From: an uncultured Dehalococcoidales bacterium
Lineage (GTDB): Bacteria; Chloroflexota; Dehalococcoidia; Dehalococcoidales; GCA-2688105
Length of the DNA stretch: 38,404 nucleotides
Assembly (NCBI GenBank): GCA_964558705.1
Contig: CAZLFC010000004.1
Coordinates: 1-38,404, forward strand
Direction of reading: 5' to 3'
The position numbers and the translations under genes were made by a program. Below, piece after piece: positions 17,194 through 30,202 of the stretch. The notes below the pieces were generated by a model. The model did no database searches, was not told the origin of the DNA, and saw only the letters and a list, made by a program, of their open reading frames with translations. Numbering within the stretch: position 1 is the first letter of the stretch; each line of letters starts with the position of its first letter.

Positions 17194-20138
17194 CAATGGC
17201 AACTCAAGAGAAAACCATAACCATCAGTATCGACAATCAGCCGGTAAAGGCGGCACCGGGAGCCAGTATCCTGGAAGCCGCCCAGGCAGCGGGAATCCAT
17301 ATTCCTACCCTGTGTCACCACCCCAAACTCTCAGTGGTAGGTTCCTGCCGGGTCTGTATGGTAGCCGTGGAAGGGATGAAAGGGGTGGTACCATCCTGCG
17401 CCACTCCCATCCGCGAGAGGATGGTAATCAAAACCGATACTCCGGAAGTCCTGGCCGCCAGGAAGATGGCGGTAGAACTGTTATTGTCGACTCACCCCTT
17501 GAATTGTAATGAATGCGATTCCAGCGGGAAGTGCGAGCTTCAGGCACTGGCTACCGAACTGGGCATTGAAACTCCCAGATTCTCCCGCGATGAAGAACGA
17601 CAGCCCATAGACGACAGGCATCCCTTCATTCTCTACGACCCCAATAAGTGCATCCTGTGCAGTCGTTGTGTCCGTGCCTGCCGTGAGATAGCCGTCAATG
17701 ATGTCTTGGGCATCAGCAACAGAGGCGGCGGGTCAATCATCTCCACCTTTTTCGAGGAGTCAATGGTCAGCGTCGGCTGTCTGTCCTGCGGCGAATGCGT
17801 CAGTGTTTGTCCTACCGCCGCCCTGACCGAAAAGCCGGGCTTCTCCATTGAGCCATCCACCGAGGCTAAAATAACCAAGACCACCTGCCCCTGGTGCGGG
17901 GTCGGCTGCACCATCGAACTTCACACCGAAGGCAACAAGGTGGTCAAGGTTACCTCACCACCCGACGCCCCCACCAATAAAGGCAGCCTCTGCGTCAAAG
18001 GTCGCTACGGCTACGAGTTTATCAATCACCCCAGCCGGCTCACCAAGCCGCTGATTAGAGTGAAACCTAAAGATGGCGGGGCGTACCACGAAGAAACCTG
18101 GCAGACCGATTTCCGCGAAGCCAGCTGGGATGAGGCGCTGGAACTGGTAGCCAAACGACTGTCCGAAATCAAGGACAAGTTTGGCAGCGAAAGCCTGGCC
18201 GGAATCAGCTCCGCCAAGTGCACCAATGAAGACAACTATCTGATGCAGAGATTCGTGCGGGAAATAATGGGCAATAACAATATTGACCATTGTGCCCGAC
18301 TTTGCCACGCTTCCACCGTGGTAGGCGCCATCGCCGCCTTTGGCAGCGGCGCCATGAGCAACTCCATTGATGATATTGCTATGGCTGATTCTCTCCTGAT
18401 AATCGGTTCCAATACAACCGAGTGCCATCCGGTTATCGGCAGCGTTGTTAAGCAGTCCGTCAGGTTCAGGGGAACGAAACTTATCGTGGCTGACCCCCGC
18501 CACATCCAGCTCACCGACCACGCCGCCATACACCTGCGTCACAAACCGGGGACCGATGTCGCCCTGCTCAACGGACTGATGCATGTCATCATCAAAGAGG
18601 GTCTGGCCAACGAAACCTTTATTAAAGAGCGCACCGAAGGCTTTGACGAACTAAACCAGGTAGTTGAAAACTACACGCCGGAGGTCGTGGAGAAAATAAG
18701 CGGCGTTGCCCAGGAAGACCTTATCAAAGCCGCCCGCGTATTCGGTCAAGCCGAAAAAGCATGCATTATTTACAGCATGGGCATAACGCAGCATACTACC
18801 GGCACCGACAATGTTAAAAGCGTGGCCAACCTCCTGCTTCTCACCGGCAACATCGGCCGGGAAGGTACCGGCTTCAGCCCGCTACGCGGACAGAATAATG
18901 TCCAGGGGGCTTGCGACCTGGGAGCATTACCGAATGTCCTCCCCGGCTACCAGGCGGTTAACAATCCGGAAAGCAGAGGAAAATTTGAAGCAGCCTGGCA
19001 CTGCCAGCTCGGTGATACTCCGGGAATCACCATGACGGAGATGCTTCCGGCCGCCCACGAAGGCAAGATAAAGGCAATGTACATCGTGGGGGAGAACCCT
19101 CTGCTCAGTGAACCTAACACCGAGCACGCCAGAGAATCGTTGAAAAGGCTGAATTTCCTGGTAGTCCAGGATATCTTCCCCTCGGAAACGGTCTGGCTGG
19201 CTGACGTTGTCCTGCCGGCGGCATGCTTTGCCGAGAAAGAAGGCACCTTCACCAGCACCGACCGGCGCGTCCAGAGAGTGCGGCAAGCGGTCACACCGCC
19301 GGGCGAAGCCCGCGATGACTGGGAGATAACCTGCCAGCTGGCGGAAAAGATGGGACACGACTTCAGCTACACCAGTGCCGAACAGATAATGGATGAAATC
19401 GCTGCTCTGACACCTATCTACGGCGGTGTCCACTATAACCGCCTGGACGGTACCGGCTTGCAGTGGCCCTGCCTTGACGATAACCACCCGGGCACTCCCT
19501 TCCTGCACAAGGACAAGTTCAGCCGTGGACTGGGCAAGTTCCACGCTTTAGAGTACATCCCTCCCGATGAGTCGATTTCTAAAGAGTTTCCCATGGTACT
19601 TACCACCGGACGAGTCCTGGAGCACTGGCACACCGGAACAATGAGTCGGCGCGCCGCTCCATTGCAGGAACTCTACCCGAAAGGTTTAGCCGAAATCCAT
19701 CCCAAGGATGCTGAGCGACTGGGCGTCTGGGAAGGTGAGATGATAACCATCACCTCAGACAGGGGCAAGATAGAAGCCAAGGCTCACATCACGGAAAAAT
19801 CAGCCCCCGGTCTTGTTTTCATGTCCTTCCACTGGCATGAAGCGCCCGCCAATATCCTCACCAACCCGGCGGTTGACCCGGTGGCCAAGATTCCCGAATA
19901 CAAGGTGTGTGCCGTCAAACCGGTGCTCGCGGTGCTTGACAGAGCGATACAGGATAATGCCTTCCTGGCCCAGTTAGCCGAGAACCCCGCGGAGGCGCTC
20001 AAGAGCTATGACCTCACCGCCGAAGAGAAGGCGGCCCTGGCTACCGGTGACATCCGCAGAATAAAGTCATGGGTCGGCGAACTCGACGAGAGAGTGGAGT
20101 CCTGGCTTATTGCCCGGCTGGCACAAGAAAAATGGTAA
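17190..20138 (+). CDS. fdhF: Formate dehydrogenase alpha subunit with a NuoG-like FeS N-terminus, a Mo/W-bisPGD catalytic domain (Cys type) and a roughly 70-aa C-terminal extension
   Basis: The start is set at ATG 17190 (ggaggaggtg RBS, ATGA overlap with the nuoF stop). There is an N-terminal 2Fe-2S plus 4Fe-4S Cys clusters. The active-site region HCARLCHASTV has a TGC Cys codon at 18303..18305 where selenoproteins have TGA. RGQNNVQGACDLG is also present. The extra C-terminal domain spans 19924..20138. Confidence 0.88.
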   Translation: MTMATQEKTITISIDNQPVKAAPGASILEAAQAAGIHIPTLCHHPKLSVVGSCRVCMVAVEGMKGVVPSCATPIRERMVIKTDTPEVLAARKMAVELLLSTHPLNCNECDSSGKCELQALATELGIETPRFSRDEERQPIDDRHPFILYDPNKCILCSRCVRACREIAVNDVLGISNRGGGSIISTFFEESMVSVGCLSCGECVSVCPTAALTEKPGFSIEPSTEAKITKTTCPWCGVGCTIELHTEGNKVVKVTSPPDAPTNKGSLCVKGRYGYEFINHPSRLTKPLIRVKPKDGGAYHEETWQTDFREASWDEALELVAKRLSEIKDKFGSESLAGISSAKCTNEDNYLMQRFVREIMGNNNIDHCARLCHASTVVGAIAAFGSGAMSNSIDDIAMADSLLIIGSNTTECHPVIGSVVKQSVRFRGTKLIVADPRHIQLTDHAAIHLRHKPGTDVALLNGLMHVIIKEGLANETFIKERTEGFDELNQVVENYTPEVVEKISGVAQEDLIKAARVFGQAEKACIIYSMGITQHTTGTDNVKSVANLLLLTGNIGREGTGFSPLRGQNNVQGACDLGALPNVLPGYQAVNNPESRGKFEAAWHCQLGDTPGITMTEMLPAAHEGKIKAMYIVGENPLLSEPNTEHARESLKRLNFLVVQDIFPSETVWLADVVLPAACFAEKEGTFTSTDRRVQRVRQAVTPPGEARDDWEITCQLAEKMGHDFSYTSAEQIMDEIAALTPIYGGVHYNRLDGTGLQWPCLDDNHPGTPFLHKDKFSRGLGKFHALEYIPPDESISKEFPMVLTTGRVLEHWHTGTMSRRAAPLQELYPKGLAEIHPKDAERLGVWEGEMITITSDRGKIEAKAHITEKSAPGLVFMSFHWHEAPANILTNPAVDPVAKIPEYKVCAVKPVLAVLDRAIQDNAFLAQLAENPAEALKSYDLTAEEKAALATGDIRRIKSWVGELDERVESWLIARLAQEKW

Positions 20139-20310: not shown

Positions 20311-21432
20311 ATGTTAGACAGAGTACCCTCATTGAAGATGAACCAGACCCAGTCCATGCAAATGCGGCAGGAGCAAAGACAAATCCTCCGCATGGAACAA
20401 GCCAACCTGCTGGAAATGCCCGAGGACGACTTTCACAAGCTTATCAGCGAGATAGAGCGTGAGCCCCTTTTTCAGAAGTTATACGGTAAGGAAAAACTAA
20501 TCCGCTACCAGAGACTGCCCAGAACCGATATGTCCTCCAGTTTCTACGCAATCAAAGAAGAGGTGGTAGCCGATAAAGGTTCGCTGGATGTTGAATCCCT
20601 TCTGCAGAATAAGGAGCACATTGTCCGGCTAATACAGCAGCTGGGCATGGAGACATTCAATAAGTATTTTTTGTTCCCGGAATCAGGGATGACTCCTGAA
20701 GAAATCGCTAGAGAATGCGACCTGGACATACCGGAGGTCCAGAAGATAAATAGCCTTATTGATGATTTCTCGGTCAGGAGTGAATTCTATCATCCGTCGA
20801 ATATTACCTCAGACAGCATCCGCTACTCCAAAATCGCCTCGGTAGATAAAGATGACAAGGGATTTATTATCGGCTATTTTTCAGCGCCTCTCGCCCGGGG
20901 TCGTTATGCCATTGATTATGAAAAATTTGAAGAGTTAAAGACGGCTGGTAAACTCGCTGACACTGAAATCAAGGAAGCCAGGCAGCTATTCAAAAAACTG
21001 GAACTGATTAATAGCCGCAAGGACACCATAACTCAAATCCTGCAAAATATCATTGACAAGCAGGCACTATACCTAGAGTCCGGCAACTCTAAGTCACTCT
21101 TACCTCTCAGCCAAAAGGAACTGGCTAAAAATATCGAGGTCGCTCCCAGTTCAATAAGTCGTGCTATTAGAGGCAAAAGTATCGAAACTCCCTGGGGTAA
21201 AGAAGTCCCTCTGAAAAACTTCTTCCCTAGGCCCAAGCGATTTAGAATGGAACTGCTCAGGCAACTGCTGGAAACCGACCAAGAGCTTTCCTCAGACGAG
21301 GCAATCCGCAACAAACTCCAGGAAAAATTTGGCGTAGCAATCTCACGTCGTTCGGTAGCCAACCTGAGAAAAGAGCTTAAATTCCCGGCGGTTCATAGAA
21401 GCCACCGTACCGCTGGAGGTAAATTAAAATGA
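20311..21432 (+). CDS. rpoN: Short, divergent sigma-54 (RpoN)-like factor
   Basis: Gln/Leu-rich region-I-like N-terminus (MNQTQSMQMRQEQRQILRMEQANLLEM). C-terminal HTH (QKELAKNIEVAPSSISRAIRGKSIETPWGKEVPLKNFF) and RpoN-box-like ISRRSVANLRKELKFP. The start is ATG 20311 or 20338. The stop overlaps the next ATG (ATGA). Confidence 0.7.
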   Translation: MLDRVPSLKMNQTQSMQMRQEQRQILRMEQANLLEMPEDDFHKLISEIEREPLFQKLYGKEKLIRYQRLPRTDMSSSFYAIKEEVVADKGSLDVESLLQNKEHIVRLIQQLGMETFNKYFLFPESGMTPEEIARECDLDIPEVQKINSLIDDFSVRSEFYHPSNITSDSIRYSKIASVDKDDKGFIIGYFSAPLARGRYAIDYEKFEELKTAGKLADTEIKEARQLFKKLELINSRKDTITQILQNIIDKQALYLESGNSKSLLPLSQKELAKNIEVAPSSISRAIRGKSIETPWGKEVPLKNFFPRPKRFRMELLRQLLETDQELSSDEAIRNKLQEKFGVAISRRSVANLRKELKFPAVHRSHRTAGGKLK

Positions 21433-23384
21433 GCATTGTCTACACCGAGAGAGAAAAATGTACCGGGTGCCTTGCCTGTGTTCGTAACTGCCCAGCCAAG
21501 GCAATCAGAATAAGAGAGGGCAAGGCTGAGGTAATAAAGGAGCGCTGTATTGACTGCGGCAACTGTGTTCAGATATGCATGGCTAAAGCGAAACACCTAG
21601 AGAGCGACATTGGATTGGTCTGGCAGCTATTGGGACAGCAGCAGCCGATAATCGCGATGCTATCCGCCCCCTTCCCCGCCGCTTTCCCTGAAATTCGACC
21701 GGGGCAGCTGGTAGCCGCTTTGAAAAAACTGGGTTTTAGCGAGATTATGGAGGATTCCTTCGGGGCTGAACTGATCTGCGGTGAATATGCCCGTCTTTTT
21801 AAGGAAAAAGCTGATAAAAATATTATCTCATCTACCTGCCCGGCGGTAGTGTCATACATTGAGAGATTTCACCCCCAGCTACTCAATAATCTAGCACCCA
21901 TTGTCTCACCTATGATAGCCATGGGTAGAGTGATTAAGCATCGTTATAATCCACAGGCTAAGGTAGTCTTCATTAGCCCTTGCGTAGCCAAGATAGCCGA
22001 GGCTAAAGATGAGAAGGTTGCCGGCATAGTGGATGCAGTACTGACCTTTGCCGAAATTAAAGAAATGTTAGCGGCTAAAGAGATTGCCCTTGCATCTCAG
22101 GACGAAGAGCAACTCACGGGTCCCAAACCAAACCTGGGGCGTCTGGTCGCCATATCGGGTGGCTTACTCAAGGCAGCCAATCTCTCCGACGATATTCTAG
22201 CCAATGAAATTATAAATGCCTGCGGTCATGAATACACACCTCATATCCTTCGCGAGTTTTCCGAAGGCAACATCACTGCCAAACTCATCACCATGTGTTT
22301 TTGTGAAGGTTGTATTGATGGTCCGGTTATTGATAACAACCTGAGCGTCTTTAAACGAAGAGAGATAATCAGCAATTACACCTTGAGCCAGGCAGACCCT
22401 GTTCAAACCGAGAAGGACGTTCAGGTATATGCTGACATTGACCTCAGCCGTAAATTTACCAATAGAAGTGTCGACCTACCTACTCCCAGCGAAGAAGATA
22501 TTCAAAGGATTTTAGAGGAGATTGGCAAGGTAGACCCCAGCTTCCATATGAACTGCGGCGCCTGCGGCTACGGCGGCTGCCGAGAACTGGCTATTGCCGT
22601 CTGCCAGGGTCTGGCTGAGGTTAATATGTGCTGGCCATATGTACTAAATAAGTTAAGAGCCACCCAAGAAGAACTAATCCAGGCTGAGAAGCTGACCTCG
22701 CTGGGTCAACTGGCCGCCTCCATCGCCCACGAGGTCAATAACCCCCTGGCCGGCGTCCTTATCTATACCCAGTTGATGGCTAAAAAAATAAACGACGATA
22801 AGCTCGCCAAAGAGGTCGCCCTCGACTACCTGTCCAAGATGGACTCCGAACTTACCCGCAGCACCAGACTAATCCGTAACCTCCTCGACTTCGCCCGGCA
22901 GTCTACGCCTACCCTCAGAGAAGTGAATGTCAACGAGGTCATCACCCGAGCTATAGAACTGGCCGCCCACTCGGCTGAACTGGGTAACGTCCAGATGATA
23001 AAGGAGCTCGACCCTGCCCTGCCCAGGCTTATGGCCGACTTCGACCAGCTCCAGCAGGTCTGCACCAACCTCATACTGAACGCCATCCAGGCAATGCCGG
23101 AAGGAGGTATATTGACCCTCCGCACCTCAACCCCACCCGATAATGACAGCCAGCTCAAGATTGAGGTACAGGATACCGGCCTCGGCATCTCCCCGGAGAA
23201 CATGCGCCGGCTGTTCACTCCCTTCTTTACTACCAAGAAGAAAGGCAAGGGCGTAGGCCTCGGTCTGGCAGTGGCCTATGGAATTGTCCAGCGCCACAAA
23301 GGTAGAATAGAAGTTCAGAGCAGGGAAGGAGAGGGTACCACCTTCATCATCTATTTGCCGCTGCGTTATGAAGAAAAAAGATAA
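21429..23384 (+). CDS. Sensor histidine kinase with 2x[4Fe-4S] ferredoxin, an [FeFe]-hydrogenase-like H-domain, a Cx2Cx4Cx16C FeS motif, then HisKA and HATPase
   Basis: Ferredoxin motifs are CTGCLACVRNCP and CIDCGNCVQIC. The Fe_hyd_lg_C-like core is (SAPFPAAF...LGFSEIMEDSFGAEL...SSTCPAVVSYIERFHPQLL...ISPCVAKIAEA...VDAVLTFAEI...MCFCEGCIDGP). NCGACGYGGCRELAIAVCQGLAEVNMC lies at 22554..22631. The H-box is AASIAHEVNNPL, and the ATPase has G-boxes. Confidence 0.8.
   Translation: MSIVYTEREKCTGCLACVRNCPAKAIRIREGKAEVIKERCIDCGNCVQICMAKAKHLESDIGLVWQLLGQQQPIIAMLSAPFPAAFPEIRPGQLVAALKKLGFSEIMEDSFGAELICGEYARLFKEKADKNIISSTCPAVVSYIERFHPQLLNNLAPIVSPMIAMGRVIKHRYNPQAKVVFISPCVAKIAEAKDEKVAGIVDAVLTFAEIKEMLAAKEIALASQDEEQLTGPKPNLGRLVAISGGLLKAANLSDDILANEIINACGHEYTPHILREFSEGNITAKLITMCFCEGCIDGPVIDNNLSVFKRREIISNYTLSQADPVQTEKDVQVYADIDLSRKFTNRSVDLPTPSEEDIQRILEEIGKVDPSFHMNCGACGYGGCRELAIAVCQGLAEVNMCWPYVLNKLRATQEELIQAEKLTSLGQLAASIAHEVNNPLAGVLIYTQLMAKKINDDKLAKEVALDYLSKMDSELTRSTRLIRNLLDFARQSTPTLREVNVNEVITRAIELAAHSAELGNVQMIKELDPALPRLMADFDQLQQVCTNLILNAIQAMPEGGILTLRTSTPPDNDSQLKIEVQDTGLGISPENMRRLFTPFFTTKKKGKGVGLGLAVAYGIVQRHKGRIEVQSREGEGTTFIIYLPLRYEEKR
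22674..23311. repeat. Copy A of a 638-bp perfect direct repeat (DHp plus most of the CA domain of the hydrogenase-like HK)
   Basis: Line-by-line comparison shows 22674..23311 is identical to 23960..24597 (offset 1286 bp). Similarity continues with mismatches to about 23370/24656. Confidence 0.9.
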
Positions 23385-23416
23385 GACGACAATCAGCTAA
23401 TTAAGCTAAGGTGTTA

Positions 23417-24679
23417 ATGGAACAGTCTATAACAATTAAACCAACCCTAAAAAACACCCTGCAACGCTGGAAAGAAATTGTGGTAGCCAAAGCTAACGAA
23501 TGGGCACAGCGAAGCGACACCAGAGGCATACGAAGCCCTCATTTCTGGATAATCACGGTTTTAATAGCCTTCGGCGCGCTGAATTACTATCTGGACCAGA
23601 CTCCCCTGATTAACCTGCCACTGTTTAACCACAGCTTTTTCACCAGTGTCCACGACGTACATCGGACATTATTCTTCATTCCCATAATCTACGCTGCTCT
23701 GGTATTCAGGGTACGGGGAAGCCTGATTGCTTCACTCGCCTTCCTCTGCGTGGTGCTACCACGCGCTTTGCTATTTTCCCCTTACCCCGACCCGTTACTT
23801 AGACCTATTCTATTTGTCATCTTTGCCGCCATTATCAGTACACTTATGGCGTCACACCTTAATCAAGTCGAAAAGGAAAGAAGCGATCGTGTCAAGCTGA
23901 GCGAAGCTTACCAGAAACTTAGCGAATATCACCAGCGCCTGAAAGAAAGCCAGGAACAGCTAATCCAGGCTGAGAAGCTGACCTCGCTGGGTCAACTGGC
24001 CGCCTCCATCGCCCACGAGGTCAATAACCCCCTGGCCGGCGTCCTTATCTATACCCAGTTGATGGCTAAAAAAATAAACGACGATAAGCTCGCCAAAGAG
24101 GTCGCCCTCGACTACCTGTCCAAGATGGACTCCGAACTTACCCGCAGCACCAGACTAATCCGTAACCTCCTCGACTTCGCCCGGCAGTCTACGCCTACCC
24201 TCAGAGAAGTGAATGTCAACGAGGTCATCACCCGAGCTATAGAACTGGCCGCCCACTCGGCTGAACTGGGTAACGTCCAGATGATAAAGGAGCTCGACCC
24301 TGCCCTGCCCAGGCTTATGGCCGACTTCGACCAGCTCCAGCAGGTCTGCACCAACCTCATACTGAACGCCATCCAGGCAATGCCGGAAGGAGGTATATTG
24401 ACCCTCCGCACCTCAACCCCACCCGATAATGACAGCCAGCTCAAGATTGAGGTACAGGATACCGGCCTCGGCATCTCCCCGGAGAACATGCGCCGGCTGT
24501 TCACTCCCTTCTTTACTACCAAGAAGAAAGGCAAGGGCGTAGGCCTCGGTCTGGCAGTGGCCTATGGAATTGTCCAGCGCCACAAAGGTAGAATAGAGGT
24601 ACAAAGCAGGGAAGGAGAGGGTACCACCTTCATTATCTATTTGCCGCTGCGTTATGAAAAACATGAAGAAAAAGATTAA
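23417..24679 (+). CDS. Membrane sensor histidine kinase (DUF4118-like 4-TM sensor, HisKA, HATPase)
   Basis: ATG 23417 (taaggtg RBS); the track start is GTG 23411. The hydrophobic N-terminus is homologous to the N-terminus of the 12019..13971 kinase. The transmitter is identical to that of the preceding kinase. Confidence 0.8.
   Translation: MEQSITIKPTLKNTLQRWKEIVVAKANEWAQRSDTRGIRSPHFWIITVLIAFGALNYYLDQTPLINLPLFNHSFFTSVHDVHRTLFFIPIIYAALVFRVRGSLIASLAFLCVVLPRALLFSPYPDPLLRPILFVIFAAIISTLMASHLNQVEKERSDRVKLSEAYQKLSEYHQRLKESQEQLIQAEKLTSLGQLAASIAHEVNNPLAGVLIYTQLMAKKINDDKLAKEVALDYLSKMDSELTRSTRLIRNLLDFARQSTPTLREVNVNEVITRAIELAAHSAELGNVQMIKELDPALPRLMADFDQLQQVCTNLILNAIQAMPEGGILTLRTSTPPDNDSQLKIEVQDTGLGISPENMRRLFTPFFTTKKKGKGVGLGLAVAYGIVQRHKGRIEVQSREGEGTTFIIYLPLRYEKHEEKD
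23960..24597. repeat. Copy B of the 638-bp perfect direct repeat
   Basis: See copy A. The antisense track ORFs 22826..23248 and 24112..24534 translate identically, which is consistent. Confidence 0.9.
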
Positions 24680-26006
24680 AATTCTTGTCGTTGATGATGA
24701 AGCCATCATCCGCGAGTCACTCCGTGACTGGCTAAGCGACACCGGATACGAAGTCCTTGTCGCCGAGAACGGCCTCCAGGGTCTGGGAATTATTGAGAAG
24801 GAGAGGCCGGGTATTGCCATTGTTGATCTGGTAATGCCTGGAATGGACGGGATTGAATTACTGAAGAGAGCCAAGGAAATTTCTCCTAACACCGACATAA
24901 TCATCATCACTGCCTACGCCAGTATCCCCACAGCTATTGCCGCCATAAGGTCCGGCGCCTATGACTACATTGAGAAGCCCTTCTGCCCGGAAAAGGTAGA
25001 GCTATTAATTGAGAAACTGATGGAGCATCAACAACTCATCGAGGAGAATATTTCCCTGCACCAGAAACTGGAGGAGCGTTACCGGTTCGAAAATATCATT
25101 GCCAAGAGTCCCAGGATGCAGCAGATAATCGAGGTGATTAAAGTCGTCGCCAAGAGTAATGCCACGGTGTTGATTACCGGCGAAAGCGGCACCGGGAAGG
25201 AACTGGTCGCACGAGCCGTCCACTCCCAGAGCTACCGCAAGGATAAGACATTTGTTGCCGTTAGTTGTGCTGCCCTGCCCGAAACCCTCCTCGAAAGCGA
25301 GCTGTTCGGGCATGAGAGAGGCTCTTTTACCGGTGCTCACGTCCAACGGAAAGGAAAATTTGAAGCTGCCAACCGGGGCAGTCTCTTCCTGGATGAGGTT
25401 GGCGAGATGAGTGCCAATATTCAGGTTCACCTGCTCAGGGTACTGGAAGAAAAAGAGTTCACCAGGGTTGGCGGGAATGAGCTAATCAAGGTCGATGTCA
25501 GAGTCATCTCAGCGACCAATAAAGATATGAAACAGGCGATAGCCAACGGGCAATTCCGTGAAGACCTTTACTACCGACTTAATGTGGTTACTATCGAATT
25601 GCCTCCCTTGAGAGAGCGAAAAGAAGACATTCCTCTCTTAGCCGAGCATTTCCTGAAAAAGTTCGCCGTGGAAAATCAAAAAGAGATTACCGGCTTTTCT
25701 CCTAAGGCTAATGATTTTCTGCTGAACTATGATTGGCCGGGTAACGTCCGGGAACTGGAAAATGCTATTGAAAGGGCAGTTATCCTGGCCAAAGATAATT
25801 ATATTGAGGTTGCCGACCTGCCCCAGGAAAGCCTGACAAAGACTCACTCGTCTGTACCCGGTGAAAGCCTTGAAAAGATTGAGAAAAATCACATCCAGAA
25901 CACACTCAAAGAAACCGACGGCAACTTAAGTAAAGCCGCCAAAATCCTGGGGATTTCCCGGGTAACTCTTTACAATAAAATTAAATTATATGATTTGAGC
26001 AAATAG
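24654..26006 (+). CDS. NtrC-family sigma-54-dependent response regulator (REC, AAA+ and Fis-type HTH)
   Basis: REC (ILVVDDE..VDLVMPGMDG..KPF), Walker A GESGTGKE and a GAFTGA-type loop (GSFTGA). Also ESELFGHE, R-finger and sensor II regions, and a C-terminal HTH (AAKILGISRVTLYNKI). It overlaps the HK stop. An alternative ATG lies at 24663. Confidence 0.9.
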   Translation: MKNMKKKIKILVVDDEAIIRESLRDWLSDTGYEVLVAENGLQGLGIIEKERPGIAIVDLVMPGMDGIELLKRAKEISPNTDIIIITAYASIPTAIAAIRSGAYDYIEKPFCPEKVELLIEKLMEHQQLIEENISLHQKLEERYRFENIIAKSPRMQQIIEVIKVVAKSNATVLITGESGTGKELVARAVHSQSYRKDKTFVAVSCAALPETLLESELFGHERGSFTGAHVQRKGKFEAANRGSLFLDEVGEMSANIQVHLLRVLEEKEFTRVGGNELIKVDVRVISATNKDMKQAIANGQFREDLYYRLNVVTIELPPLRERKEDIPLLAEHFLKKFAVENQKEITGFSPKANDFLLNYDWPGNVRELENAIERAVILAKDNYIEVADLPQESLTKTHSSVPGESLEKIEKNHIQNTLKETDGNLSKAAKILGISRVTLYNKIKLYDLSK

Positions 26007-26040: not shown

Positions 26041-26063
26041 AGTCTCCATTAAAGCAGAAACTC

Positions 26064-26098
26064 AGGCTATCCTGGCAATTCAGGATAGCCTTCTCTTT
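26064..26098 (+). terminator. Hairpin plus T-tract after the ntrC-like gene, abutting the sigma-54 promoter
   Basis: aggctatcctg-gcaatt-caggatagcct is an 11-bp perfect stem followed by tctctttt. Its arms are conserved in the paralogous hairpin at 28403..28432. Confidence 0.55.
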
Positions 26099-26114
26099 TG
26101 GCAAGATAATTGCT
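26099..26114 (+). promoter_or_regulatory. Sigma-54 (-24/-12) promoter P1
   Basis: TGGCAAGATAATTGCT has GG at 26100-26101 and GC at 26112-26113 (exact GG-N10-GC, TGGCA-N6-TTGC). It lies 26 nt upstream of ATG 26139, with ggaggtg between them. Confidence 0.75.
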
Positions 26115-26138: not shown

Positions 26139-28334
26139 ATGAAACCTATATTGATAGTAGAAGATGAGGATATCATGAGAGAGTCCCTGCAGGACTGGCT
26201 GACTGACGTCGGCTATAAAGTGGAGACCGCCGAGGAGGGAGAGAAAGCCCTGGAAGCCATCGATGAGAAGGACTTCGGCATTGTTATCCTCGACCTGAAG
26301 TTACCGGGTAAAGACGGCCTCGAGGTGCTTAGAGAAGCTAAGGCGAAAAGACCCCAGCTTAAGGGTATCATTATTACCGCTTACCCTTCAGTCCAAACAG
26401 CTATAGACGCCATGAAGGAGGGAGCCGTAGATTACCTGCCCAAGCCCTTCGACCTCAATGAACTGGAAAAATTGGTCCGGGAGACCCTGGGGCCAATCCA
26501 GGTGGAGATAAAACCAAAGAAGGCTGCCGGAAAAGCCAAGGCTGAACCTGCCGAAATCGAGGAAGTTATCGATGAGGTAACCGGGAAGGTACACCTGCCT
26601 CCCTGTCAGATAGCCTGTCCCATCGGAGAGCCGATTCAGCGCACCAATGCGATGATTTCACACCTGCCCCTTGACACCGAGAAGGCTATCCCTCAGATAA
26701 CAAAAATAGGCGATATAATTTATGAGAAGAATCCTCTATTCACAATATGCAGCTATATCTGCGGGCTTTGTGAAAAAGAATGCAACTACAAAGACCACAC
26801 GGGAGCGATAAGAAGAAAGATGCTTAAACGGTTCCTCACCGATTACTACCTGCCCCATCTGGAAACCAAGCCCCCCTTCCCCCTCCCTACCAGGGAAAAA
26901 GTTGCCGTAATTGGCGGTGGCCCCGCGGGGTTAATGTCCGCCTATATGTTAAGTAAAGACGGCTACCGGGTGACTATCCTGGAAAAAAGTCTCGAATTAG
27001 GCGGAGCCCTGAGATACATTCCTCAATACCGCCTTCCGAAGGATATTGTCGATTCCACTTTAAACAACCTGGTAAGAATTGCCCATATTGATGTCAGATT
27101 CGGAGTAAGCATGGGCAGTGGCGAGAAAACCCTGGATGACCTCAGGAATGAAGGTTGCCAAGCCGTATTCATCGCCACCGGCACTCCAGCTCCCCGACCG
27201 CTCACCTTTGAAGGCAAACCGGTACCGGGAGCCGACCTGGAAGGAGTTGCGTTCGGGTTATATCTTCTCATCGACGTAAACCAGAGCAAGGTCTCCCATC
27301 AGCTATTACGCCGGCTTTTCGGTGATAAGAGAGTAATCGTGGTAGGCGGCGGCAATGTAGCCTTCGATGCCGCCAGAACCGCCCGGCGGCTTGGCGGAGA
27401 TGTTACTCTTGTCTGCCTCGAAAATGAGAATAAGTCCTCCAAGGATGGAATTCCTGCCGATGTTGAGGAGATAAAAGGTGCCCGTGAAGAAGGCATCAAA
27501 ATATGCTACAGCCGGGGTGTAGAAGAGATAATCGGCAAGGATGGCAAGTTCACCAAAATAAAATGTCCCCGCTGCACCTCAGTTTTCGACGAAAAAGGAT
27601 TCAATCCTAAATTTGACCGAAGTGATTTTATATACCTTGAGGGCGACGTGTTATTGACAACCATAGGACAGGGTCCGGAGCATTCGTTCTTCCAGCAGGA
27701 AGGCTTACTTAATGAGCGAGGCAGATCTGATACCGACCCGCTTACCCTTATGAGCAATCGCCAAGAAGGAGTCTTCATCGGTGGTGATGTGAGGCGACTG
27801 GGCTTTGCTGCCGAAGCGATGAGAGACGGCATAGTAGCCGCCGAGTCTATAGACCGTTACCTGAAGGGTGAGGAACTCAAGGAAGGCCGGGAAAAGCAGT
27901 TTGAAAGCGCGGCTATCCCCACGCTCATGGAGTACAAGCCTCAACCTGAAGCAGAATGGGTACTGCTGGAAGAGAGGCTTAACTTTGAACTGTTTGAAAA
28001 AGGCTTCACCCTGGAGGAAGCAATAGAAGAAGCGACAAGATGCCTGTATTGCGGCCCGTGCAAGAGCTGCAAAGCATGCGTCGTCCTCGAGCTGCAACCT
28101 GAGATACCCAAAATTGAAGTCAATCAGGATATATGCAGTGGCTGTGGCATCTGTGTAGGCTTATGCAGCTATGATGCCATCCAGCTAAGGGCAGATAACG
28201 GCAAGGCAGTAGCCACCATAGACGATATTAAATGCAAGCGATGCGGAGTATGCAGTGCCGCCTGCCCGTCTAACGCCATCGGCATTGGGCACGCCACTTC
28301 TGAGAACATCATAACTGAAATCCCCGACTGGTAA
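26139..28334 (+). CDS. Receiver domain fused to a GltD/NfnB/SfrB-like FeS-flavoprotein oxidoreductase with a C-terminal 2x[4Fe-4S] ferredoxin domain
   Basis: REC spans aa 1-120 (VEDE..LDLKLPGKDG..ITAY..KPF). An FeS N-domain follows (PPCQIACP, CSYICGLCEKEC). There are two Rossmann motifs (VAVIGGGPAGL, VIVVGGGNVAFDAA). The C-terminus has CLYCGPCKSCKAC, CSGCGICVGLC and CKRCGVCSAACP. Confidence 0.8.
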   Translation: MKPILIVEDEDIMRESLQDWLTDVGYKVETAEEGEKALEAIDEKDFGIVILDLKLPGKDGLEVLREAKAKRPQLKGIIITAYPSVQTAIDAMKEGAVDYLPKPFDLNELEKLVRETLGPIQVEIKPKKAAGKAKAEPAEIEEVIDEVTGKVHLPPCQIACPIGEPIQRTNAMISHLPLDTEKAIPQITKIGDIIYEKNPLFTICSYICGLCEKECNYKDHTGAIRRKMLKRFLTDYYLPHLETKPPFPLPTREKVAVIGGGPAGLMSAYMLSKDGYRVTILEKSLELGGALRYIPQYRLPKDIVDSTLNNLVRIAHIDVRFGVSMGSGEKTLDDLRNEGCQAVFIATGTPAPRPLTFEGKPVPGADLEGVAFGLYLLIDVNQSKVSHQLLRRLFGDKRVIVVGGGNVAFDAARTARRLGGDVTLVCLENENKSSKDGIPADVEEIKGAREEGIKICYSRGVEEIIGKDGKFTKIKCPRCTSVFDEKGFNPKFDRSDFIYLEGDVLLTTIGQGPEHSFFQQEGLLNERGRSDTDPLTLMSNRQEGVFIGGDVRRLGFAAEAMRDGIVAAESIDRYLKGEELKEGREKQFESAAIPTLMEYKPQPEAEWVLLEERLNFELFEKGFTLEEAIEEATRCLYCGPCKSCKACVVLELQPEIPKIEVNQDICSGCGICVGLCSYDAIQLRADNGKAVATIDDIKCKRCGVCSAACPSNAIGIGHATSENIITEIPDW
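26142..26580. repeat. Copy A of a 439-bp near-identical direct repeat (REC domain plus linker)
   Basis: 26142..26531 is identical to 28534..28923 (390 bp, offset 2392). There are 2 mismatches (26532 and 26557) before divergence at 26581. Confidence 0.9.
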
Positions 28335-28381: not shown

Positions 28382-28402
28382 GGCTACTTTAAACCAAAGA
28401 CC

Positions 28403-28438
28403 AAGGCTATCCTGAATCGTCAGGATAGCCTTTTCTTA
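28403..28438 (+). terminator. Hairpin plus T-tract after the REC-GltD gene, abutting sigma-54 promoter P2
   Basis: aaggctatcctga-atcg-tcaggatagcctt is a 13-bp stem followed by ttctta. Confidence 0.55.
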
Positions 28439-28454
28439 TGGCAAGAAAATTGCC
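28439..28454 (+). promoter_or_regulatory. Sigma-54 (-24/-12) promoter P2
   Basis: TGGCAAGAAAATTGCC has GG at 28440-28441 and GC at 28452-28453. It lies 27 nt upstream of ATG 28480, the same geometry as P1. Confidence 0.75.
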
Positions 28455-28479: not shown

Positions 28480-29571
28480 ATGGAAAAGCTAGCAGTCTTA
28501 AAGGAAGATAAAGTAAAAGGAGGTGAAAAAGTGAAACCTATATTGATAGTAGAAGATGAGGATATCATGAGAGAGTCCCTGCAGGACTGGCTGACTGACG
28601 TCGGCTATAAAGTGGAGACCGCCGAGGAGGGAGAGAAAGCCCTGGAAGCCATCGATGAGAAGGACTTCGGCATTGTTATCCTCGACCTGAAGTTACCGGG
28701 TAAAGACGGCCTCGAGGTGCTTAGAGAAGCTAAGGCGAAAAGACCCCAGCTTAAGGGTATCATTATTACCGCTTACCCTTCAGTCCAAACAGCTATAGAC
28801 GCCATGAAGGAGGGAGCCGTAGATTACCTGCCCAAGCCCTTCGACCTCAATGAACTGGAAAAATTGGTCCGGGAGACCCTGGGGCCAATCCAGGTGGAGA
28901 TAAAACCAAAGAAGGCTGCCGGAGAAGCCAAGGCTGAACCTGCCGAAACCGAGGAAGTTATCGATGAGGTAAAGGTTGAAGAGATTATAGCTATAGCTCC
29001 CGAGGAAGTCCCGGACCATCTGGCGCAGGGCAAGACCCAATGTGACGCCGGCCAATATCTGAAAGCTCTAAAGGAGTTTGAGGCTGTCCTCAACGCTGCC
29101 CCGGGTAGCATCGAAGCCCGAGTCTGGATACGAAAGGCAAAAGAAGCCCTAGCCAAGCCAGAGGCTGAAGCCGTAGCTGAAGGAGAGGAAGCCGCCGCAG
29201 AAGGCAAAATCAAGGAGTGCGTTTGGATGAAGATGGGTATGGTAGCCTACCGCATCTGCACCAACGACTATGACTGCACCACCTGCGATTTCGACCAGAT
29301 GATGCAGGAGAAGATGGCCAGTGGTGATGCCCCGGAACTTGAAGCTGCGCTGGAGAAATTCAAGGCGCTACCCGGTAACCAGAGGCTTTGCCGCTATGCC
29401 CTTAAGGGTGATGTATCACACCGAATTTGCAGCCGCCTGTTCCAGTGCAACGCCTGCGAATTTGGTCAAATGATGGAGGATGCTCTCCAAAGAAAGCTGG
29501 ATAAGCTGGAAGCACGCCGAGCTGCTCTGCTCAAAAAAGAGCAAAAACAAAAAGCTGAAACCGAAGCATAA
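28480..29571 (+). CDS. Response regulator: REC, TPR-like linker, twin C-x12-C-x5-C-x2-C modules and a coiled-coil tail
   Basis: The start is set at ATG 28480 (ggaggtg RBS, matching P1 geometry). An alternative GTG lies at 28531 (aaggaggtg RBS). The track ATG 28438 lies inside the -24 element. The REC is identical to that of the 26139 ORF. The C-terminus has CVWMKMGMVAYRICTNDYDCTTCDFDQMMQE and CRYALKGDVSHRICSRLFQCNACEFGQMMED. Confidence 0.75.
   Translation: MEKLAVLKEDKVKGGEKVKPILIVEDEDIMRESLQDWLTDVGYKVETAEEGEKALEAIDEKDFGIVILDLKLPGKDGLEVLREAKAKRPQLKGIIITAYPSVQTAIDAMKEGAVDYLPKPFDLNELEKLVRETLGPIQVEIKPKKAAGEAKAEPAETEEVIDEVKVEEIIAIAPEEVPDHLAQGKTQCDAGQYLKALKEFEAVLNAAPGSIEARVWIRKAKEALAKPEAEAVAEGEEAAAEGKIKECVWMKMGMVAYRICTNDYDCTTCDFDQMMQEKMASGDAPELEAALEKFKALPGNQRLCRYALKGDVSHRICSRLFQCNACEFGQMMEDALQRKLDKLEARRAALLKKEQKQKAETEA
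28534..28972. repeat. Copy B of the 439-bp REC repeat
   Basis: See copy A. Confidence 0.9.
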
Positions 29572-29704: not shown

Positions 29705-30202
29705 ATGGACACCCAAAAAAGGAGGATTCTGCTGGTAGAAGATGAAACCGTGATGCGCGAAGGCATGCGTGACTGGCTCATGGAGAATGGTTACGATGTC
29801 GAGAGCGCTGAGACCGGAGAAGAAGCCTTACAGAGAATCAGGAAGGAAGACTTTGGCATTATCGTCCTTGATTTAAAGTTACTGGGCATTGATGGACTGC
29901 AAGTATTCGAAAAAGCCAGAGAGCTTAAATCTGAAGCCAAAGGGATAATCATTACCGCCCATCCTTCGCCAGAAACGCAGGAAAAGGCACAAAAGCTGGG
30001 AGTCCTCGACTACCTGGTAAAACCTTTCAAGATTGAAAATCTGGAAAAGATAATCAGAGAGGTGCTGGGAGAACCAGAGAGAAAACTAACGGGCAAAGAA
30101 TATCTCTGGCTGGAACTTAATAACTCTTCTTATCGACTCTGCACCAAAAACTATAAATATGACTCATATGCTTTCACGCAGGGGACCTATAAGATAGATT
30201 AA
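29705..30202 (+). CDS. Stand-alone receiver protein with a short Cys-depleted remnant of the C-x12-C-x5-C-x2-C module
   Basis: aggagg RBS. The REC is paralogous to the two upstream RECs (MREGMRDWLMENGY, LDLKL, ITAH, KPF). The tail KEYLWLELNNSSYRLCTKNYKYDSYAFTQ aligns to KECVWMKMGMVAYRICTNDYDCTTCDFDQ, with 3 of 4 Cys replaced by Tyr. Confidence 0.75.
   Translation: MDTQKRRILLVEDETVMREGMRDWLMENGYDVESAETGEEALQRIRKEDFGIIVLDLKLLGIDGLQVFEKARELKSEAKGIIITAHPSPETQEKAQKLGVLDYLVKPFKIENLEKIIREVLGEPERKLTGKEYLWLELNNSSYRLCTKNYKYDSYAFTQGTYKID

Follow-up and report, generated by a model that had tools for sequence, protein, structure and literature searches.

A gene encoding a receiver domain (REC) fused to a GltD/NfnB-type electron-transfer flavoprotein, designated REC-GltD herein, is real and conserved in uncultured Dehalococcoidia. 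It occupies positions 26139..28334 (+ strand) of the 38,404-nucleotide stretch of DNA analysed (the window) as one uninterrupted ORF of 731 aa. Its product is best read as a response regulator with an electron-transfer flavoprotein as the output, namely a kinase-controlled electron-transfer subunit, and we would give this reading an even chance of being correct. No description of a REC-GltD fusion was retrieved by the literature search.

Architecture and authenticity of the fusion

From the N-terminus, the protein consists of an intact REC, a linker of 35 aa, an FeS-FAD-NAD(P) module of the GltD/NfnB type, and a ferredoxin domain with 2x[4Fe-4S]. Pfam models were assigned to residues 4-113 (Response_reg; E 1e-29, 103.1 bits against the curated cut-off of 30.2), 154-237 (Fer4_20), 254-564 (Pyr_redox_2; E 5e-26, 92 bits against a cut-off of 26), and 666-713 (Fer4_7). 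The whole-protein scores fell under the NCBIfam cut-offs of PRK12771 (325.7 vs 516), TIGR01316 (gltA; 178.4 vs 471.75), and PRK12814 (203.9 vs 916). The AF2 model of REC-GltD was poor (pLDDT 62, pTM 0.44) and did not place the REC.

The same architecture (Response_reg plus Pyr_redox_2), for which the initial annotation had recommended a database search, was recovered in >100 protein clusters showing 64-79% identity, drawn from JGI, ENA, NCBI, and Logan assemblies and lying on many independent contigs. The homologues originated from Dehalococcoidia MAGs in every case, including five GTDB species representatives. A sequencing frameshift or mis-join, which the initial annotation had named as a possible origin, was excluded by the single ORF and by the recurrence of the fusion on independent contigs. 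An artefact of this kind, or a non-phosphorylatable REC kept as a structural appendage, could draw support from a repeat: the REC and linker DNA at 26140-26580 recurs 2.4 kb downstream (28532-28972), the two copies differing at 2 of 441 nt (99% identity), and such repeats can confuse assemblers. However, a mis-join across the repeat swaps only two REC-bearing 5' ends and therefore could not create the fusion, and since both copies continue in frame into their CDS, a swapped product would still be REC-GltD. The >100 clusters, the five representatives, and the invariance of all phospho-site residues effectively refuted this explanation, which we consider scarcely credible.

Receiver domain and linker

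The receiver (aa 1-117; 26139..26489, +) possesses a full phospho-acceptor pocket consisting of the acidic pair D9/E10, the acceptor D52 in VILDLKL, T80 in IIITAY, the switch residue Y99, and K102 in KPF, all of which were invariant across 36 homologues. The complete REC recognized in the initial annotation was thus corroborated, and the phospho-pocket and Rossmann motifs, whose loss on proper alignment had been a concern, were retained. In the AF2 model, the domain adopted the (beta-alpha)5 fold, with five E-H units over residues 4-117 (pLDDT ~87), and its nearest solved structures were NtrC1-type receivers.

The linker (aa 118-152; 26490..26594, +), delimited by alignment columns and an AF2 pLDDT of 26-43, is predicted to be a disordered, flexible tether. 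A Lys/Ala/Glu linker of roughly 40 aa had been described earlier; the linker is indeed present, but spans ~35 aa, and only residues 118-137 form a variable, low-complexity Lys/Ala/Pro/Glu stretch. Residues 138-152 (EEVIDEVTGKV) are conserved and shared with REC-less homologues, whose alignment to REC-GltD starts at aa 133-138. So long and flexible a linker argues against tight allosteric coupling.

Circularly permuted flavoprotein core

The core begins with a Fer4_20-like FeS region (26595..26849, +) containing six Cys residues (C156, C160, C204, C208, C211, and C215), which do not complete the ligand set of canonical GltD. It is followed by the FAD- and NAD(P)-binding Rossmann domains (aa 254-564; 26898..27830, +), carrying the FAD motif VIGGGPAG and the NAD(P) motif VVGGGNVAFD, in which GGGPAG (259-264) and GGGNVA (403-408) were both invariant in the homologues, bearing out the two dinucleotide folds noted earlier. 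The N-terminal 'RCxxCG' element, absent from its canonical position, was located behind the flavin domain at residues 610-648 (NFELFEKGFTLEEAIEEATRCLYCGPCKSCKAC; 27966..28082, +). This segment corresponds by homology to the start of canonical NfnB/GltD, aligning with residues 14-52 of Thermotoga maritima NfnB (4ylf_B), and in 9n5u, 9bov, and 8oh5 it aligned with the stretch behind the flavin domain. Because the element follows the flavin domain, the core is, on the evidence of these alignments, a GltD module with the circular permutation of the Stn/Nfn-ABC (StnC-like) type. The permuted element supplies C635, C638, C641, C644, and C647, all invariant, and these five together with the six N-terminal Cys residues are sufficient in number to ligate two GltD-type [4Fe-4S] clusters, the geometry lying beyond the poor AF2 model. 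The GltD-like module with N-terminal FeS motifs proposed in the initial annotation was therefore upheld as a module, whereas its N-terminal ligand set proved partial, with the remainder at 610-648.

The C-terminus forms a 2x[4Fe-4S] ferredoxin domain (aa 657-714; 28107..28280, +; Pfam Fer4_7) with the motifs C666-x2-C669-x2-C672-x3-C676 and C699-x2-C702-x2-C705-x3-C709, in agreement with the added ferredoxin domain noted earlier. It resembled the C-terminal ferredoxin domain of HdrA (9sfi_A 573-644, E 8e-16). Identification of REC-GltD as HdrA was rejected, since the flavin domain is of the GltD type and the similarity to HdrA is limited to residues 655-726.

At the position of the NADPH motif 'YRR', which is kept in NfnB, NfnI-L, StnC, and 9n5u, REC-GltD displays an invariant C426-L427-E428 and a 5-residue insertion. 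As the NADPH Arg pair is missing, the cofactor may be NADH instead of NAD(P)H, and on this motif the pyridine nucleotide is probably NAD(H). The earlier designation as an NAD(P)H oxidoreductase thus holds for the presence of a pyridine-nucleotide motif and is questionable with respect to NADPH.

The best PDB matches to the core were the GltD-like domains of Bfu-family StnC/Nfn-ABC large subunits (9n5u_A, 9bov_A, and 8oh5_C; E 4e-53 to 5e-45), which share with REC-GltD the permuted order CxxxCP ... CxxxCxxxC, then FAD/NAD, then RCxxCG. The StnC/Nfn-ABC module is, however, fused to a HydA/FdhA-like subunit, has NuoE/NuoF-like partners and the NADP 'YRR', and bears no receiver, whereas REC-GltD stands alone as a polypeptide, with a REC at one end and an HdrA-like ferredoxin domain at the other. 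The next matches belonged to the NfnB/SudA/GltD small-subunit family (T. maritima NfnB, 4ylf_B, and Pyrococcus furiosus NfnI-L, 5jca_L), which likewise has the FAD and NAD(P) Rossmann pair and a GltD-type [4Fe-4S] region, and was alignable over ~430 residues (E 1e-41 to 1e-43). REC-GltD differs from this family in its 'RCxxC' element behind the flavin domain, its extra 2x[4Fe-4S] ferredoxin domain, its N-terminal receiver, and the 'CLE' plus insertion where NfnB has 'YRR'. A partner gene for NfnA (PyrK/FNR-like 2Fe-2S flavoprotein) was absent from the window and the related loci examined.

Descent from an Mvh-type hydrogenase subunit

REC-less relatives of ~600 aa proved to be products of Mvh-type [NiFe]-hydrogenase operons in which their gene comes third (NiFe small, NiFe large, GltD, MvhD), and one operon comprising NiFe_S, NiFe_L, the REC-less GltD core, NifU, HycI, and MvhD was found in ~20 species. 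The best match of the NiFe large subunit was MvhA (5odc_F, E 8e-123). This REC-less third subunit of the Dehalococcoidia operons, which was not described in the literature searched, has the same Cys set and 'CLE' motif as REC-GltD, with a core identity of 59-82%. It differs in lacking a receiver and in always occurring with NiFe_S, NiFe_L, HycI, and MvhD, the opposite of the window copy; no NiFe, Mvh, MvhD, or Hdr genes were present in the 38-kb window.

In an NJ tree, the REC-bearing clade, including the window protein, was nested inside the REC-less hydrogenase-operon cores. The GltD slot of the hydrogenase operon is itself held by REC-GltD at five loci (L001-3, L010, and L033), with no kinase within 10 kb at L001, L010, and L033, and at two others (L005 and L007) REC-GltD is directly followed by MvhD, NiFe_S, and NiFe_L. 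GltD-MvhD fusions were also observed (P0125, L022, L024, and L025). Taken from the tree and the gene order, the core was shown to derive from the third, REC-less subunit encoded in Dehalococcoidia Mvh-type [NiFe]-hydrogenase operons, the N-terminal receiver to have been added in one Dehalococcoidia lineage, and the window gene to have been relocated into a signalling cassette under its own sigma-54 promoter.

In six proteins (P0121 and P0271-P0275), a REC was found at the C-terminus of the same subunit, and in a Planctomycetota MAG the genes that come after this variant are those for MvhD, NiFe_S, and NiFe_L, with no kinase nearby; judged from these arrangements, the Planctomycetota lineage fused REC to the opposite end independently. 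At L036, an FeS protein resembling NuoG/HoxU and adjoining NuoEF bears a fused REC of this subtype (77% identity), and P0137 is a 3xREC-HdrA-like protein. Across the relatives, the recurrent partners were MvhD plus an Mvh-type [NiFe] hydrogenase, or HdrCB-HdrL. Given the REC-less hydrogenase-operon orthologues, the opposite-end fusion in Planctomycetota, and the REC-NuoG/HoxU-like fusion at L036, phosphorylation control of a redox subunit is a reasonable reading of the comparative data.

Transcription signals and signalling cassette

As read from its flanking signals, REC-GltD in the window is monocistronic, in the order terminator, sigma-54 promoter, CDS, and second terminator. The terminator-like hairpin closing the preceding ntrC-type gene (26064..26091, +) has a 12-bp stem and a T-run, and its stem sequence changes between loci with compensating substitutions, which indicates a structural element and not a protein-binding site. 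The sigma-54-type -24/-12 promoter (TGGCAAGATAATTGC; 26099..26113, +) is an exact consensus match 26 nt 5' of the ATG, with the RBS GGAGGTG in between, and a further terminator-like hairpin (28403..28432, +) follows the gene. A second sigma-54-type promoter (TGGCAAGAAAATTGC; 28439..28453, +) was assigned to the downstream gene REC-x, and TTGGCAAGAAAATTGCA is kept upstream of REC-GltD or REC-x at L005, L006 (twice), L008, L009, L011, L036, L038, and L041.

REC-GltD lies in a cassette of the order S54DBD, HydS-like HK, (HK2), NtrC, (REC-GltD), and REC-x, which was found in the window, L005-L009, L011, L036, L038, and L041. The first gene encodes a short sigma-54-like protein of 373 aa (20311..21432, +), matched by RpoN models in its DNA-binding half only. 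The next product is an [FeFe]-hydrogenase-like sensor histidine kinase (21429..23384, +) with 2x[4Fe-4S], an H-domain, the FeS motif CGACGYGGC, HisKA, and HATPase, in which Thr replaces the proton-relay Cys of motif L1 and accessory [4Fe-4S] motifs lie on both sides of the H-domain. The following membrane histidine kinase (23411..24679, +; ~4 TM helices) shares a nearly identical transmitter core with the kinase before it: identity between the two was 98% in the window, 94% at L008, and 84% at L006, against 77-86% for comparisons between genomes. An NtrC-type sigma-54 activator (24654..26006, +; REC, AAA+, and HTH_8 domains) precedes REC-GltD. REC-x (28480..29571, +; probable start ATG 28480), present in the cassette at 10 loci, has a receiver and linker 99% identical at the DNA level to those of REC-GltD, a TPR-like stretch, and a Cys motif (C-x12-C-x5-C-x2-C) that occurs twice; its C-terminal part gave no family match in Pfam, NCBIfam, or PDB. 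In other genomes, the receivers of REC-GltD and REC-x group by genome, not by output domain. A single-domain receiver further downstream (29705..30202, +) is 55% identical to the REC of REC-GltD and retains the Cys motif of REC-x in degenerate form. Because the cassette is headed by a hydrogenase-like sensor kinase, REC-GltD is a good candidate for an electron-transfer enzyme controlled directly by a two-component system.

At five loci (the window, L006, L008, L009, and L011), REC-GltD is set among signalling genes and not in an enzyme operon, a placement that would suit a sensory or feedback role equally well. In this main rival, the flavin/FeS module would report the NAD(H) or ferredoxin state, and the receiver would tune the NtrC branch, either by competing for phosphate or by inhibiting the kinase, so that the flavoprotein would be input rather than output. 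A monocistronic, sigma-54-dependent gene inside the cassette would be switched on by the very pathway that phosphorylates its product, which is a typical feedback layout. The receiver is also common to the Cys-rich REC-x and the single-domain REC, apparent accessory signalling proteins, and a competing-receiver role suits the flexible tether. A precedent is FixT of Caulobacter, an Fe-S-binding single-domain receiver that exerts feedback on its kinase by inhibiting FixL in a redox/oxygen-sensing two-component pathway (PMC7078487), although FixT carries one cluster on the REC itself, whereas REC-GltD has a complete 580-aa flavoenzyme module attached. Such a module with four clusters would be a costly sensor. 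Moreover, the close identity of the core to REC-less hydrogenase-operon subunits, the REC-bearing forms at exactly that subunit position (L001-3, L010, L033, L005, and L007), and the independent C-terminal fusion in an Mvh-type operon devoid of a nearby kinase all speak against this rival. The redox-sensing alternative already raised in the initial annotation is thus kept alive by the cassette placement and weakened by the hydrogenase-operon occurrences; we regard it as a serious possibility, albeit an unlikely one.

In another alternative, REC-GltD would be an electron partner of the sensor kinase, draining electrons from H2 oxidation by the sensor to NAD(P)+ or supplying them from NAD(P)H, and thereby resetting or poising it. 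Docking on the kinase DHp domain is general to receivers; it would bring the GltD ferredoxin end beside the FeS chain of the hydrogenase-like sensor and so allow electron exchange. The two proteins occur together in the window and L005-L008, the sensor H-domain is flanked by accessory [4Fe-4S] motifs, and the GltD core pairs with hydrogenases elsewhere. Nevertheless, REC-GltD is accompanied at L011 by the membrane kinase alone and at L001, L010, and L033 by no nearby kinase, while the cassette lacks REC-GltD at L036, L038, and L041. We know of no precedent for such a partner of a sensor kinase, and the proposal appears improbable.

The genes for NuoE-like, NuoF-like, and FdhA proteins of the NAD-linked formate dehydrogenase type (15320..20138, +) constitute the neighbouring redox complex. 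They had been called adjacent and suggested as the electron partner; in fact, four signalling genes (20311-26006) intervene, and no specific support for the partnership was obtained, the partners of the relatives being MvhD with Mvh-type hydrogenase or HdrCB-HdrL. That REC-GltD is a phosphorylation-gated NAD(P)H entry/exit module of this formate dehydrogenase would fit the ~6 kb separation on the same strand, the presence at L009 of an FdhA-like gene that follows HdrL-MvhD in the vicinity of REC-GltD, and the GltD-like modules fused to FdhA/HydA-like subunits in Stn/Nfn-ABC. On the other side, the NADH/FMN site of the formate dehydrogenase is already supplied by NuoF, and the region upstream of nuoE yielded no sigma-54 promoter. 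The complex beside the cassette also varies by genome (formate dehydrogenase in the window, Hdr at L006, NuoEF plus an FeS protein at L036/L038, and no redox complex at L008), whereas the MvhD/NiFe association recurs. We hold this reading to be very unlikely.

Proposed mechanism and implications

In the preferred reading as a kinase-controlled electron-transfer subunit, the core (~aa 140-731) would carry FAD, a pyridine-nucleotide site, paired GltD-type [4Fe-4S] clusters built from the N- and C-terminal Cys elements, and the HdrA-like ferredoxin domain. It may connect a pyridine nucleotide (NAD(P)(H), and probably NAD(H)), via FAD and the chain of FeS clusters, with an MvhD-type cluster belonging to a hydrogenase or Hdr-like complex. 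The inputs would be the two kinases with near-identical transmitters, a cytoplasmic [FeFe]-hydrogenase-like H2/redox sensor and a membrane-bound kinase. Both would phosphorylate the near-identical receivers of REC-GltD and REC-x as well as the NtrC-type activator, which would then activate the sigma-54 promoters of these two genes. The flexible tether would hold the receiver beside the FeS end, the putative site of partner docking, where its phosphorylation state may open or block electron exchange, either state being compatible with the sequence as the active one. Candidate switches are CheB-like occlusion and release, or receiver dimerisation. CheB consists of an N-terminal REC, a flexible linker, and an enzymatic domain, and phosphorylation is modelled to relieve occlusion; its output is a methylesterase and that of REC-GltD a redox protein, in which such a mechanism is hypothetical.

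A broader proposal, which we put forward tentatively as plausible but short of probable, is that two-component phosphorylation directly gates the electron-transfer subunit of Mvh/Hdr-type, potentially electron-bifurcating, complexes, with the H2/redox-sensing [FeFe]-hydrogenase-like kinase and a transmitter-sharing membrane kinase acting on receivers fused to redox subunits. Identical receivers would then be borne by a GltD-like flavoprotein, a NuoG/HoxU-like FeS protein, and HdrA-like proteins. In Cupriavidus, the HoxBC-HoxJ-HoxA system ([NiFe] group 2b) relays a signal from a hydrogenase-like sensor via a histidine kinase to an NtrC-type regulator of hydrogen-metabolism genes. Putative sensory [FeFe] hydrogenases of group C1 have likewise been classified as histidine kinase-linked (HydDB, PMC5037454). 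The known H2-sensing two-component systems have a transcription output only, whereas in the window the H-domain is part of the same polypeptide as HisKA/HATPase, the transmitter is shared with a second kinase, and extra receivers are fused to redox subunits.

To our knowledge, the regulation of hydrogenases and flavin-based electron-bifurcating complexes has so far been transcriptional or thermodynamic; we know of no receiver-domain switch within such complexes, and none was described in the literature searched. If the proposal is true, REC-GltD would be the first response-regulator switch inside a hydrogenase or bifurcation complex, and the cassette would offer a compact model of branched two-component signalling, with two sensors sharing one transmitter, several outputs sharing one receiver, and their matching kept by gene conversion. 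The cell could then redirect electrons among H2, NAD(H), and complexes of the Hdr or FDH kind in a matter of seconds, alongside sigma-54-dependent transcription. The proteins originate from Dehalococcoidia that are abundant in the subsurface and have a poorly understood energy metabolism; if the receiver gates the subunit, anaerobes would thereby be shown to be capable of re-routing low-potential electrons post-translationally in response to H2/redox signals.

Domain architecture and conserved residues of REC-GltD

REC-GltD was found to be encoded by a single unbroken ORF of 731 aa (26139-28334, + strand), in which Pfam searches identified a Response_reg domain (residues 4-113, 103 bits), Fer4_20 (residues 154-237), Pyr_redox_2 (residues 254-564, 92 bits), and a 4Fe-4S dicluster domain (residues 666-713). 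Across 36 aligned homologues, the complete phospho-acceptor set of the receiver (D9/E10, D52, T80, Y99, and K102), the dinucleotide motifs GGGPAG and GGGNVA, and 19 cysteines were all invariant, and the ferredoxin-motif residues C702 and C709 were kept in at least 90% of the sequences. The initial annotation, which had described a receiver joined by a linker to a GltD-like module with two dinucleotide folds and an added ferredoxin domain, was thus correct, and the loss of catalytic residues or cofactor motifs, named there as a possible refutation, was not observed. Its linker of roughly 40 aa does exist, but measures approximately 35 aa and is variable and of low complexity at residues 118-137 only. 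Likewise, the N-terminal FeS Cys motifs that it noted are present but incomplete by themselves; residues 610-648, which align with residues 14-52 of T. maritima NfnB, complete this region. Judging from this alignment, the core of REC-GltD is a circular permutation common to the GltD-like domains of StnC/Nfn-ABC, and these domains were also its best solved-structure matches (9n5u_A, 4e-53; 9bov_A; 8oh5_C). The C-terminal ferredoxin domain resembled that of HdrA (9sfi_A, 8e-16). The AF2 model built from the 36-sequence alignment (pLDDT 62, pTM 0.44) was too poor to place the receiver relative to the FeS end.

Whereas NfnB and StnC carry the NADPH-binding Y-R-R, the REC-GltD family has an invariant C-L-E and a 5-residue insertion instead, and this replacement makes NADH the likelier nucleotide. 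REC-GltD scored below the curated cut-off of every NCBIfam GltD-type family, and membership in NfnAB was rejected because REC-GltD has neither the NADPH Arg pair nor a partner NfnA; the protein is therefore not to be filed as NfnB or GltD proper.

Authenticity and distribution of the fusion

Searches of a large protein database recovered relatives of equal length and 64-79% identity in more than 100 clusters (90% identity level), all with the same Response_reg, Pyr_redox_2, and Fer4 architecture and originating from JGI, ENA, NCBI, and Logan assemblies. Where names were given, these clusters were proteins of Dehalococcoidales or Chloroflexota MAGs, and when one genome for each GTDB species was scanned, the close relatives fell solely in Dehalococcoidia-type MAGs. 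The domain-architecture search proposed earlier, covering taxonomic spread and neighbours, thus showed the fusion to be conserved. A search of 50%-identity representatives found no further lineage of N-terminal REC-GltD proteins beyond this tight Dehalococcoidia family; what came up were variants with a C-terminal receiver, MvhD-fused variants, and 3xREC-HdrA-like variants.

The receiver and linker of REC-GltD are duplicated in the next gene, REC-x (28480-29571, + strand), as a 441-nt direct repeat with two mismatches (26140-26580 and 28532-28972). As both copies run on in frame into coding sequence, a mis-join at the repeat could not have made the fusion. Together with the recurrence of the architecture in many independent assemblies, this ruled out the artefactual fusion by frameshift or mis-join that the initial annotation had considered.

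CheY-like receivers, GltD/NfnB modules, Stn-type permuted modules, and MvhD-linked hydrogenases are all known individually, as are receiver-regulated enzymes such as CheB. Automatic annotation already names the present fusion (for example, [quoted passage not shown]). In the literature searched for REC fusions to GltD/NfnB and for receiver-bearing hydrogenase subunits, the fusion was undescribed, and it may have been listed earlier in Galperin's 2006 response-regulator census.

Hydrogenase ancestry of the core

ORFs of 42 related loci were labelled by BLASTP against reference proteins. A REC-less core of approximately 600 aa, 59-82% identical to that of REC-GltD, was the third gene of an operon in about 20 species, in the order NiFe small, NiFe large, GltD core, NifU, HycI, MvhD, FlpD/Fer4, and MetV-like. 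Since the top match of the NiFe large subunit was MvhA (5odc_F, 8e-123), the operon was assigned to the Mvh-type (group 3c-like) cytoplasmic hydrogenases. The same slot was held by REC-GltD in five loci (L001-3, L010, and L033), and in L005 and L007 the order was (HdrC-HdrB-)HdrL, REC-GltD, MvhD, NiFe small, NiFe large, and HycI, L005 starting at a contig end within the HdrL gene. Furthermore, GltD-MvhD fusion proteins were found (P0125 and in L022, L024, and L025), and when the cores were compared by neighbour joining (a quick distance tree, no support values), all N-terminal-REC proteins formed one clade nested among the REC-less hydrogenase-operon proteins. The operon slot, the GltD-MvhD fusions, and this nesting indicated that the output domain of REC-GltD descended from a hydrogenase subunit, which probably couples NAD(P)(H) via FAD and FeS clusters to MvhD. 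Within the 38-kb window no Mvh, MvhD, or Hdr gene was found, and hence the REC-GltD of the window has no partner candidate of that kind beside it.

The combination of a GltD-like subunit, NifU, MvhD, an FlpD/ferredoxin protein, and a MetV-like (PF12225) protein in the Mvh-type [NiFe]-hydrogenase operons of Dehalococcoidia (L001, L003, L015, L026, L029, L037, and others) may point to a complex of methylene-tetrahydrofolate or Hdr type that is linked to H2 and NAD. Neither the REC-less GltD-like subunit nor such a Dehalococcoidia operon was found described in the literature searched, including that on the subunit composition of Dehalococcoides Vhu.

Independent receiver fusions to redox subunits

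The 50%-representative search and Pfam further revealed a sister group (P0121 and P0271-P0275) having the receiver at the C-terminus; this receiver is 48% identical to that of the window and keeps all catalytic residues. In a Planctomycetota MAG, MvhD, NiFe small, and NiFe large come after the corresponding gene; on another contig it precedes MetV, MetF, HdrC, and an HdrL-like gene. In addition, a receiver of the same subtype (77% identical to the window's) is fused in L036 (9998-11002) to a NuoG/HoxU-like 2Fe-2S/4Fe-4S protein beside NuoE and NuoF, and P0137, a 3xREC-HdrA-like protein of 1217 aa, also has this subtype. That receivers have repeatedly been joined to FeS/flavin subunits of cytoplasmic redox complexes speaks for a functional link and against coincidence. 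The same receiver subtype was also seen in a tandem-REC protein, P0127.

Signalling cassette around REC-GltD

In the window, the NuoE-like, NuoF-like, and FdhA genes (15320-20138; FdhA above the TIGR01591 cut-off) are followed in order by the genes for a sigma-54-like protein, a hydrogenase-like (H-domain) kinase, a membrane kinase, an NtrC-type activator, REC-GltD, REC-x, and a single-domain receiver (29705-30202). The cassette of sigma-54-like protein, hydrogenase-like kinase, optional second kinase, NtrC-type protein, and REC-x recurs in nine other loci (L005-L009, L011, L036, L038, and L041), and REC-GltD lies within or beside it in the window, L005-L009, and L011. The adjoining redox complex differs, being FDH in the window, Hdr in L006, Hdr-Mvh in L005 and L007, and NuoEF with an FeS protein in L036 and L038. 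Coupling of REC-GltD to the adjacent NuoEF-FdhA complex, as the initial annotation had proposed, is thus a lesser alternative: NuoEF-FdhA comes with an NADH site of its own, and its association with REC-GltD is not kept across loci.

The sensor encoded at 21429-23384 (+ strand) consists of an [FeFe]-hydrogenase H-domain fused directly to HisKA/HATPase, with two N-terminal [4Fe-4S] motifs and a CGACGYGGC motif ahead of the kinase part. Of the H-cluster motifs, the sensor has L2 (SPCVAK) and L3 (MCFCEGCIDGP), but in L1 (SSTCPA) Thr replaces the proton-relay Cys, and H-cluster binding is accordingly uncertain. The protein is 60-78% identical across eight Dehalococcoidia cassettes, and identity falls to 46% in L041, which is more distant. 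Hydrogenases of [FeFe] group C1, described as "histidine kinase-linked" and putatively sensory, have been reported (PMC5037454). A role of REC-GltD as electron partner of this sensor kinase was regarded as another lesser alternative. The next gene encodes the membrane histidine kinase (approximately four TM helices), and the NtrC-type gene lies between it and REC-GltD.

The window region is unusually rich in two-component genes, with a GAF-PAS kinase and LuxR-type regulator pair upstream (12019-14661) and a further single-domain receiver downstream (33370-33759, - strand). Genes for an aldehyde:ferredoxin oxidoreductase and a polyferredoxin also lie downstream (34622-36981, - strand). A small ORF upstream of nuoE (14912-15274, + strand) shares 61% identity over its last 71 residues with the C-terminal tail of FdhA (residues 934-1004, 19923-20135), which extends beyond the molybdopterin-binding domain; this module of approximately 70 aa thus occurs both free-standing and fused.

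Sigma-54 promoters of REC-GltD and REC-x

Upstream of REC-GltD, a terminator hairpin (26064-26091) precedes a sigma-54 -24/-12 element, TGGCAAGATAATTGC (26099-26113), and an RBS; the CDS is followed by a terminator (28403-28432) and a second sigma-54 element for REC-x (28439-28453). From this arrangement, REC-GltD is predicted to be a monocistronic unit, and the transcription starts set by the two sigma-54 elements are predicted near 26125 and 28465. In nine other loci, TTGGCAAGAAAATTGCA was kept ahead of either REC-x or REC-GltD, and it was missing where REC-GltD sits within a hydrogenase or Hdr operon. The neighbouring NtrC-type activator probably drives both promoters. The first gene of the cassette always encodes the 373-aa sigma-54-like protein (20311-21432, + strand), which has a Gln-rich, region I-like N-terminus. 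RpoN models match its C-terminal DNA-binding part alone (TIGR02395, 88 bits, cut-off 277; profile positions 192-429). The protein may serve the TTGGCAAGAAAATTGCA promoters as a sigma-54 paralogue, either dedicated to them or truncated. The search found no sigma-54 promoter ahead of either the nuoE/FDH operon or the first cassette gene, and thus there is no evidence for FDH in the same regulon.

The conserved hairpin upstream of the promoters was rejected as an activator-binding site in favour of a terminator, its sequence varying between loci with compensating changes. A TGTAAAG...CTTTACA-like element approximately 100 nt upstream of the sigma-54 promoters (about 26020-26045 and 28360-28385 in the window), kept in most loci, and two direct TTTAGTGTAAA repeats ahead of the cassette's first gene (20245-20290) are candidate activator-binding sites.

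The cassette location and the pathway-dependent promoter of the window copy would also fit a FixT-like role, in which a cofactor-loaded receiver protein senses the redox state and feeds back on the kinases. FixT offers a precedent for such feedback by a cofactor-bearing receiver protein (PMC7078487), and we consider this role the main rival to the gating proposed below, though the less likely of the two.

Matched transmitters and receivers

Of the receiver proteins in the cassette, REC-x is the most constant, occurring in 10 loci; it combines its receiver with a TPR-like stretch and two copies of the motif W/C-x-M-x-x-G-x-x-x-Y-R-I-C-x-x-x-Y/F-x-C-x-x-C-x-F-x-Q-M-M. Its C-terminal Cys-rich domain matched no family in Pfam, NCBIfam, or PDB apart from a weak TPR match. 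The single-domain receiver at 29705-30202 retains a degenerate remnant of this motif whose cysteines are gone, and an intact version with a single copy was found in L007.

In the window, REC-GltD and REC-x have receivers of 99% identity, and the approximately 100 nt upstream of the two genes, comprising terminator hairpin, sigma-54 promoter, and RBS, are 78% identical to each other. Elsewhere, these receivers group by genome and not by output domain; those of L009, for example, share 83% identity within the genome versus 68% with the window. The transmitter cores of the two window kinases, spanning aa 408-651 of the hydrogenase-like kinase and aa 176-422 of the membrane kinase, are likewise identical at 236 of 242 aa and form a 699-nt direct repeat with four mismatches (22674-23372 and 23960-24658), and the transmitter pair is 94% identical within L008 and 84% within L006, versus 77-86% between genomes. 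The transmitter pattern suggests that gene conversion keeps the two sensor kinases on one output specificity. Concerted evolution of transmitters and receivers is what would be expected if both kinases must talk to both receivers.

Proposed role of REC-GltD

The intact receiver of REC-GltD is carried on a flexible tether at the protein end bearing the FeS wire. In the C-terminal fusions, the receiver directly follows the ferredoxin domain. Since the N- and C-terminal FeS parts are held together by the permuted element, this attachment point is expected in the same region of the protein. The REC-GltD gene is, moreover, tied to a kinase cassette whose transmitters and receivers are matched. On this entirely computational basis, we propose, giving it about an even chance, that phosphorylation of D52 by the cassette kinases would alter how readily the FeS end can be reached by a partner (an MvhD-type cluster, an Hdr-like complex, or ferredoxin), either through CheB-like occlusion and release or through receiver dimerisation. 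Electron flow between NAD(H)/FAD and the partner would thereby be gated in parallel with sigma-54-dependent induction. REC-GltD offers a way to test for direct two-component control of hydrogen and bifurcation metabolism.
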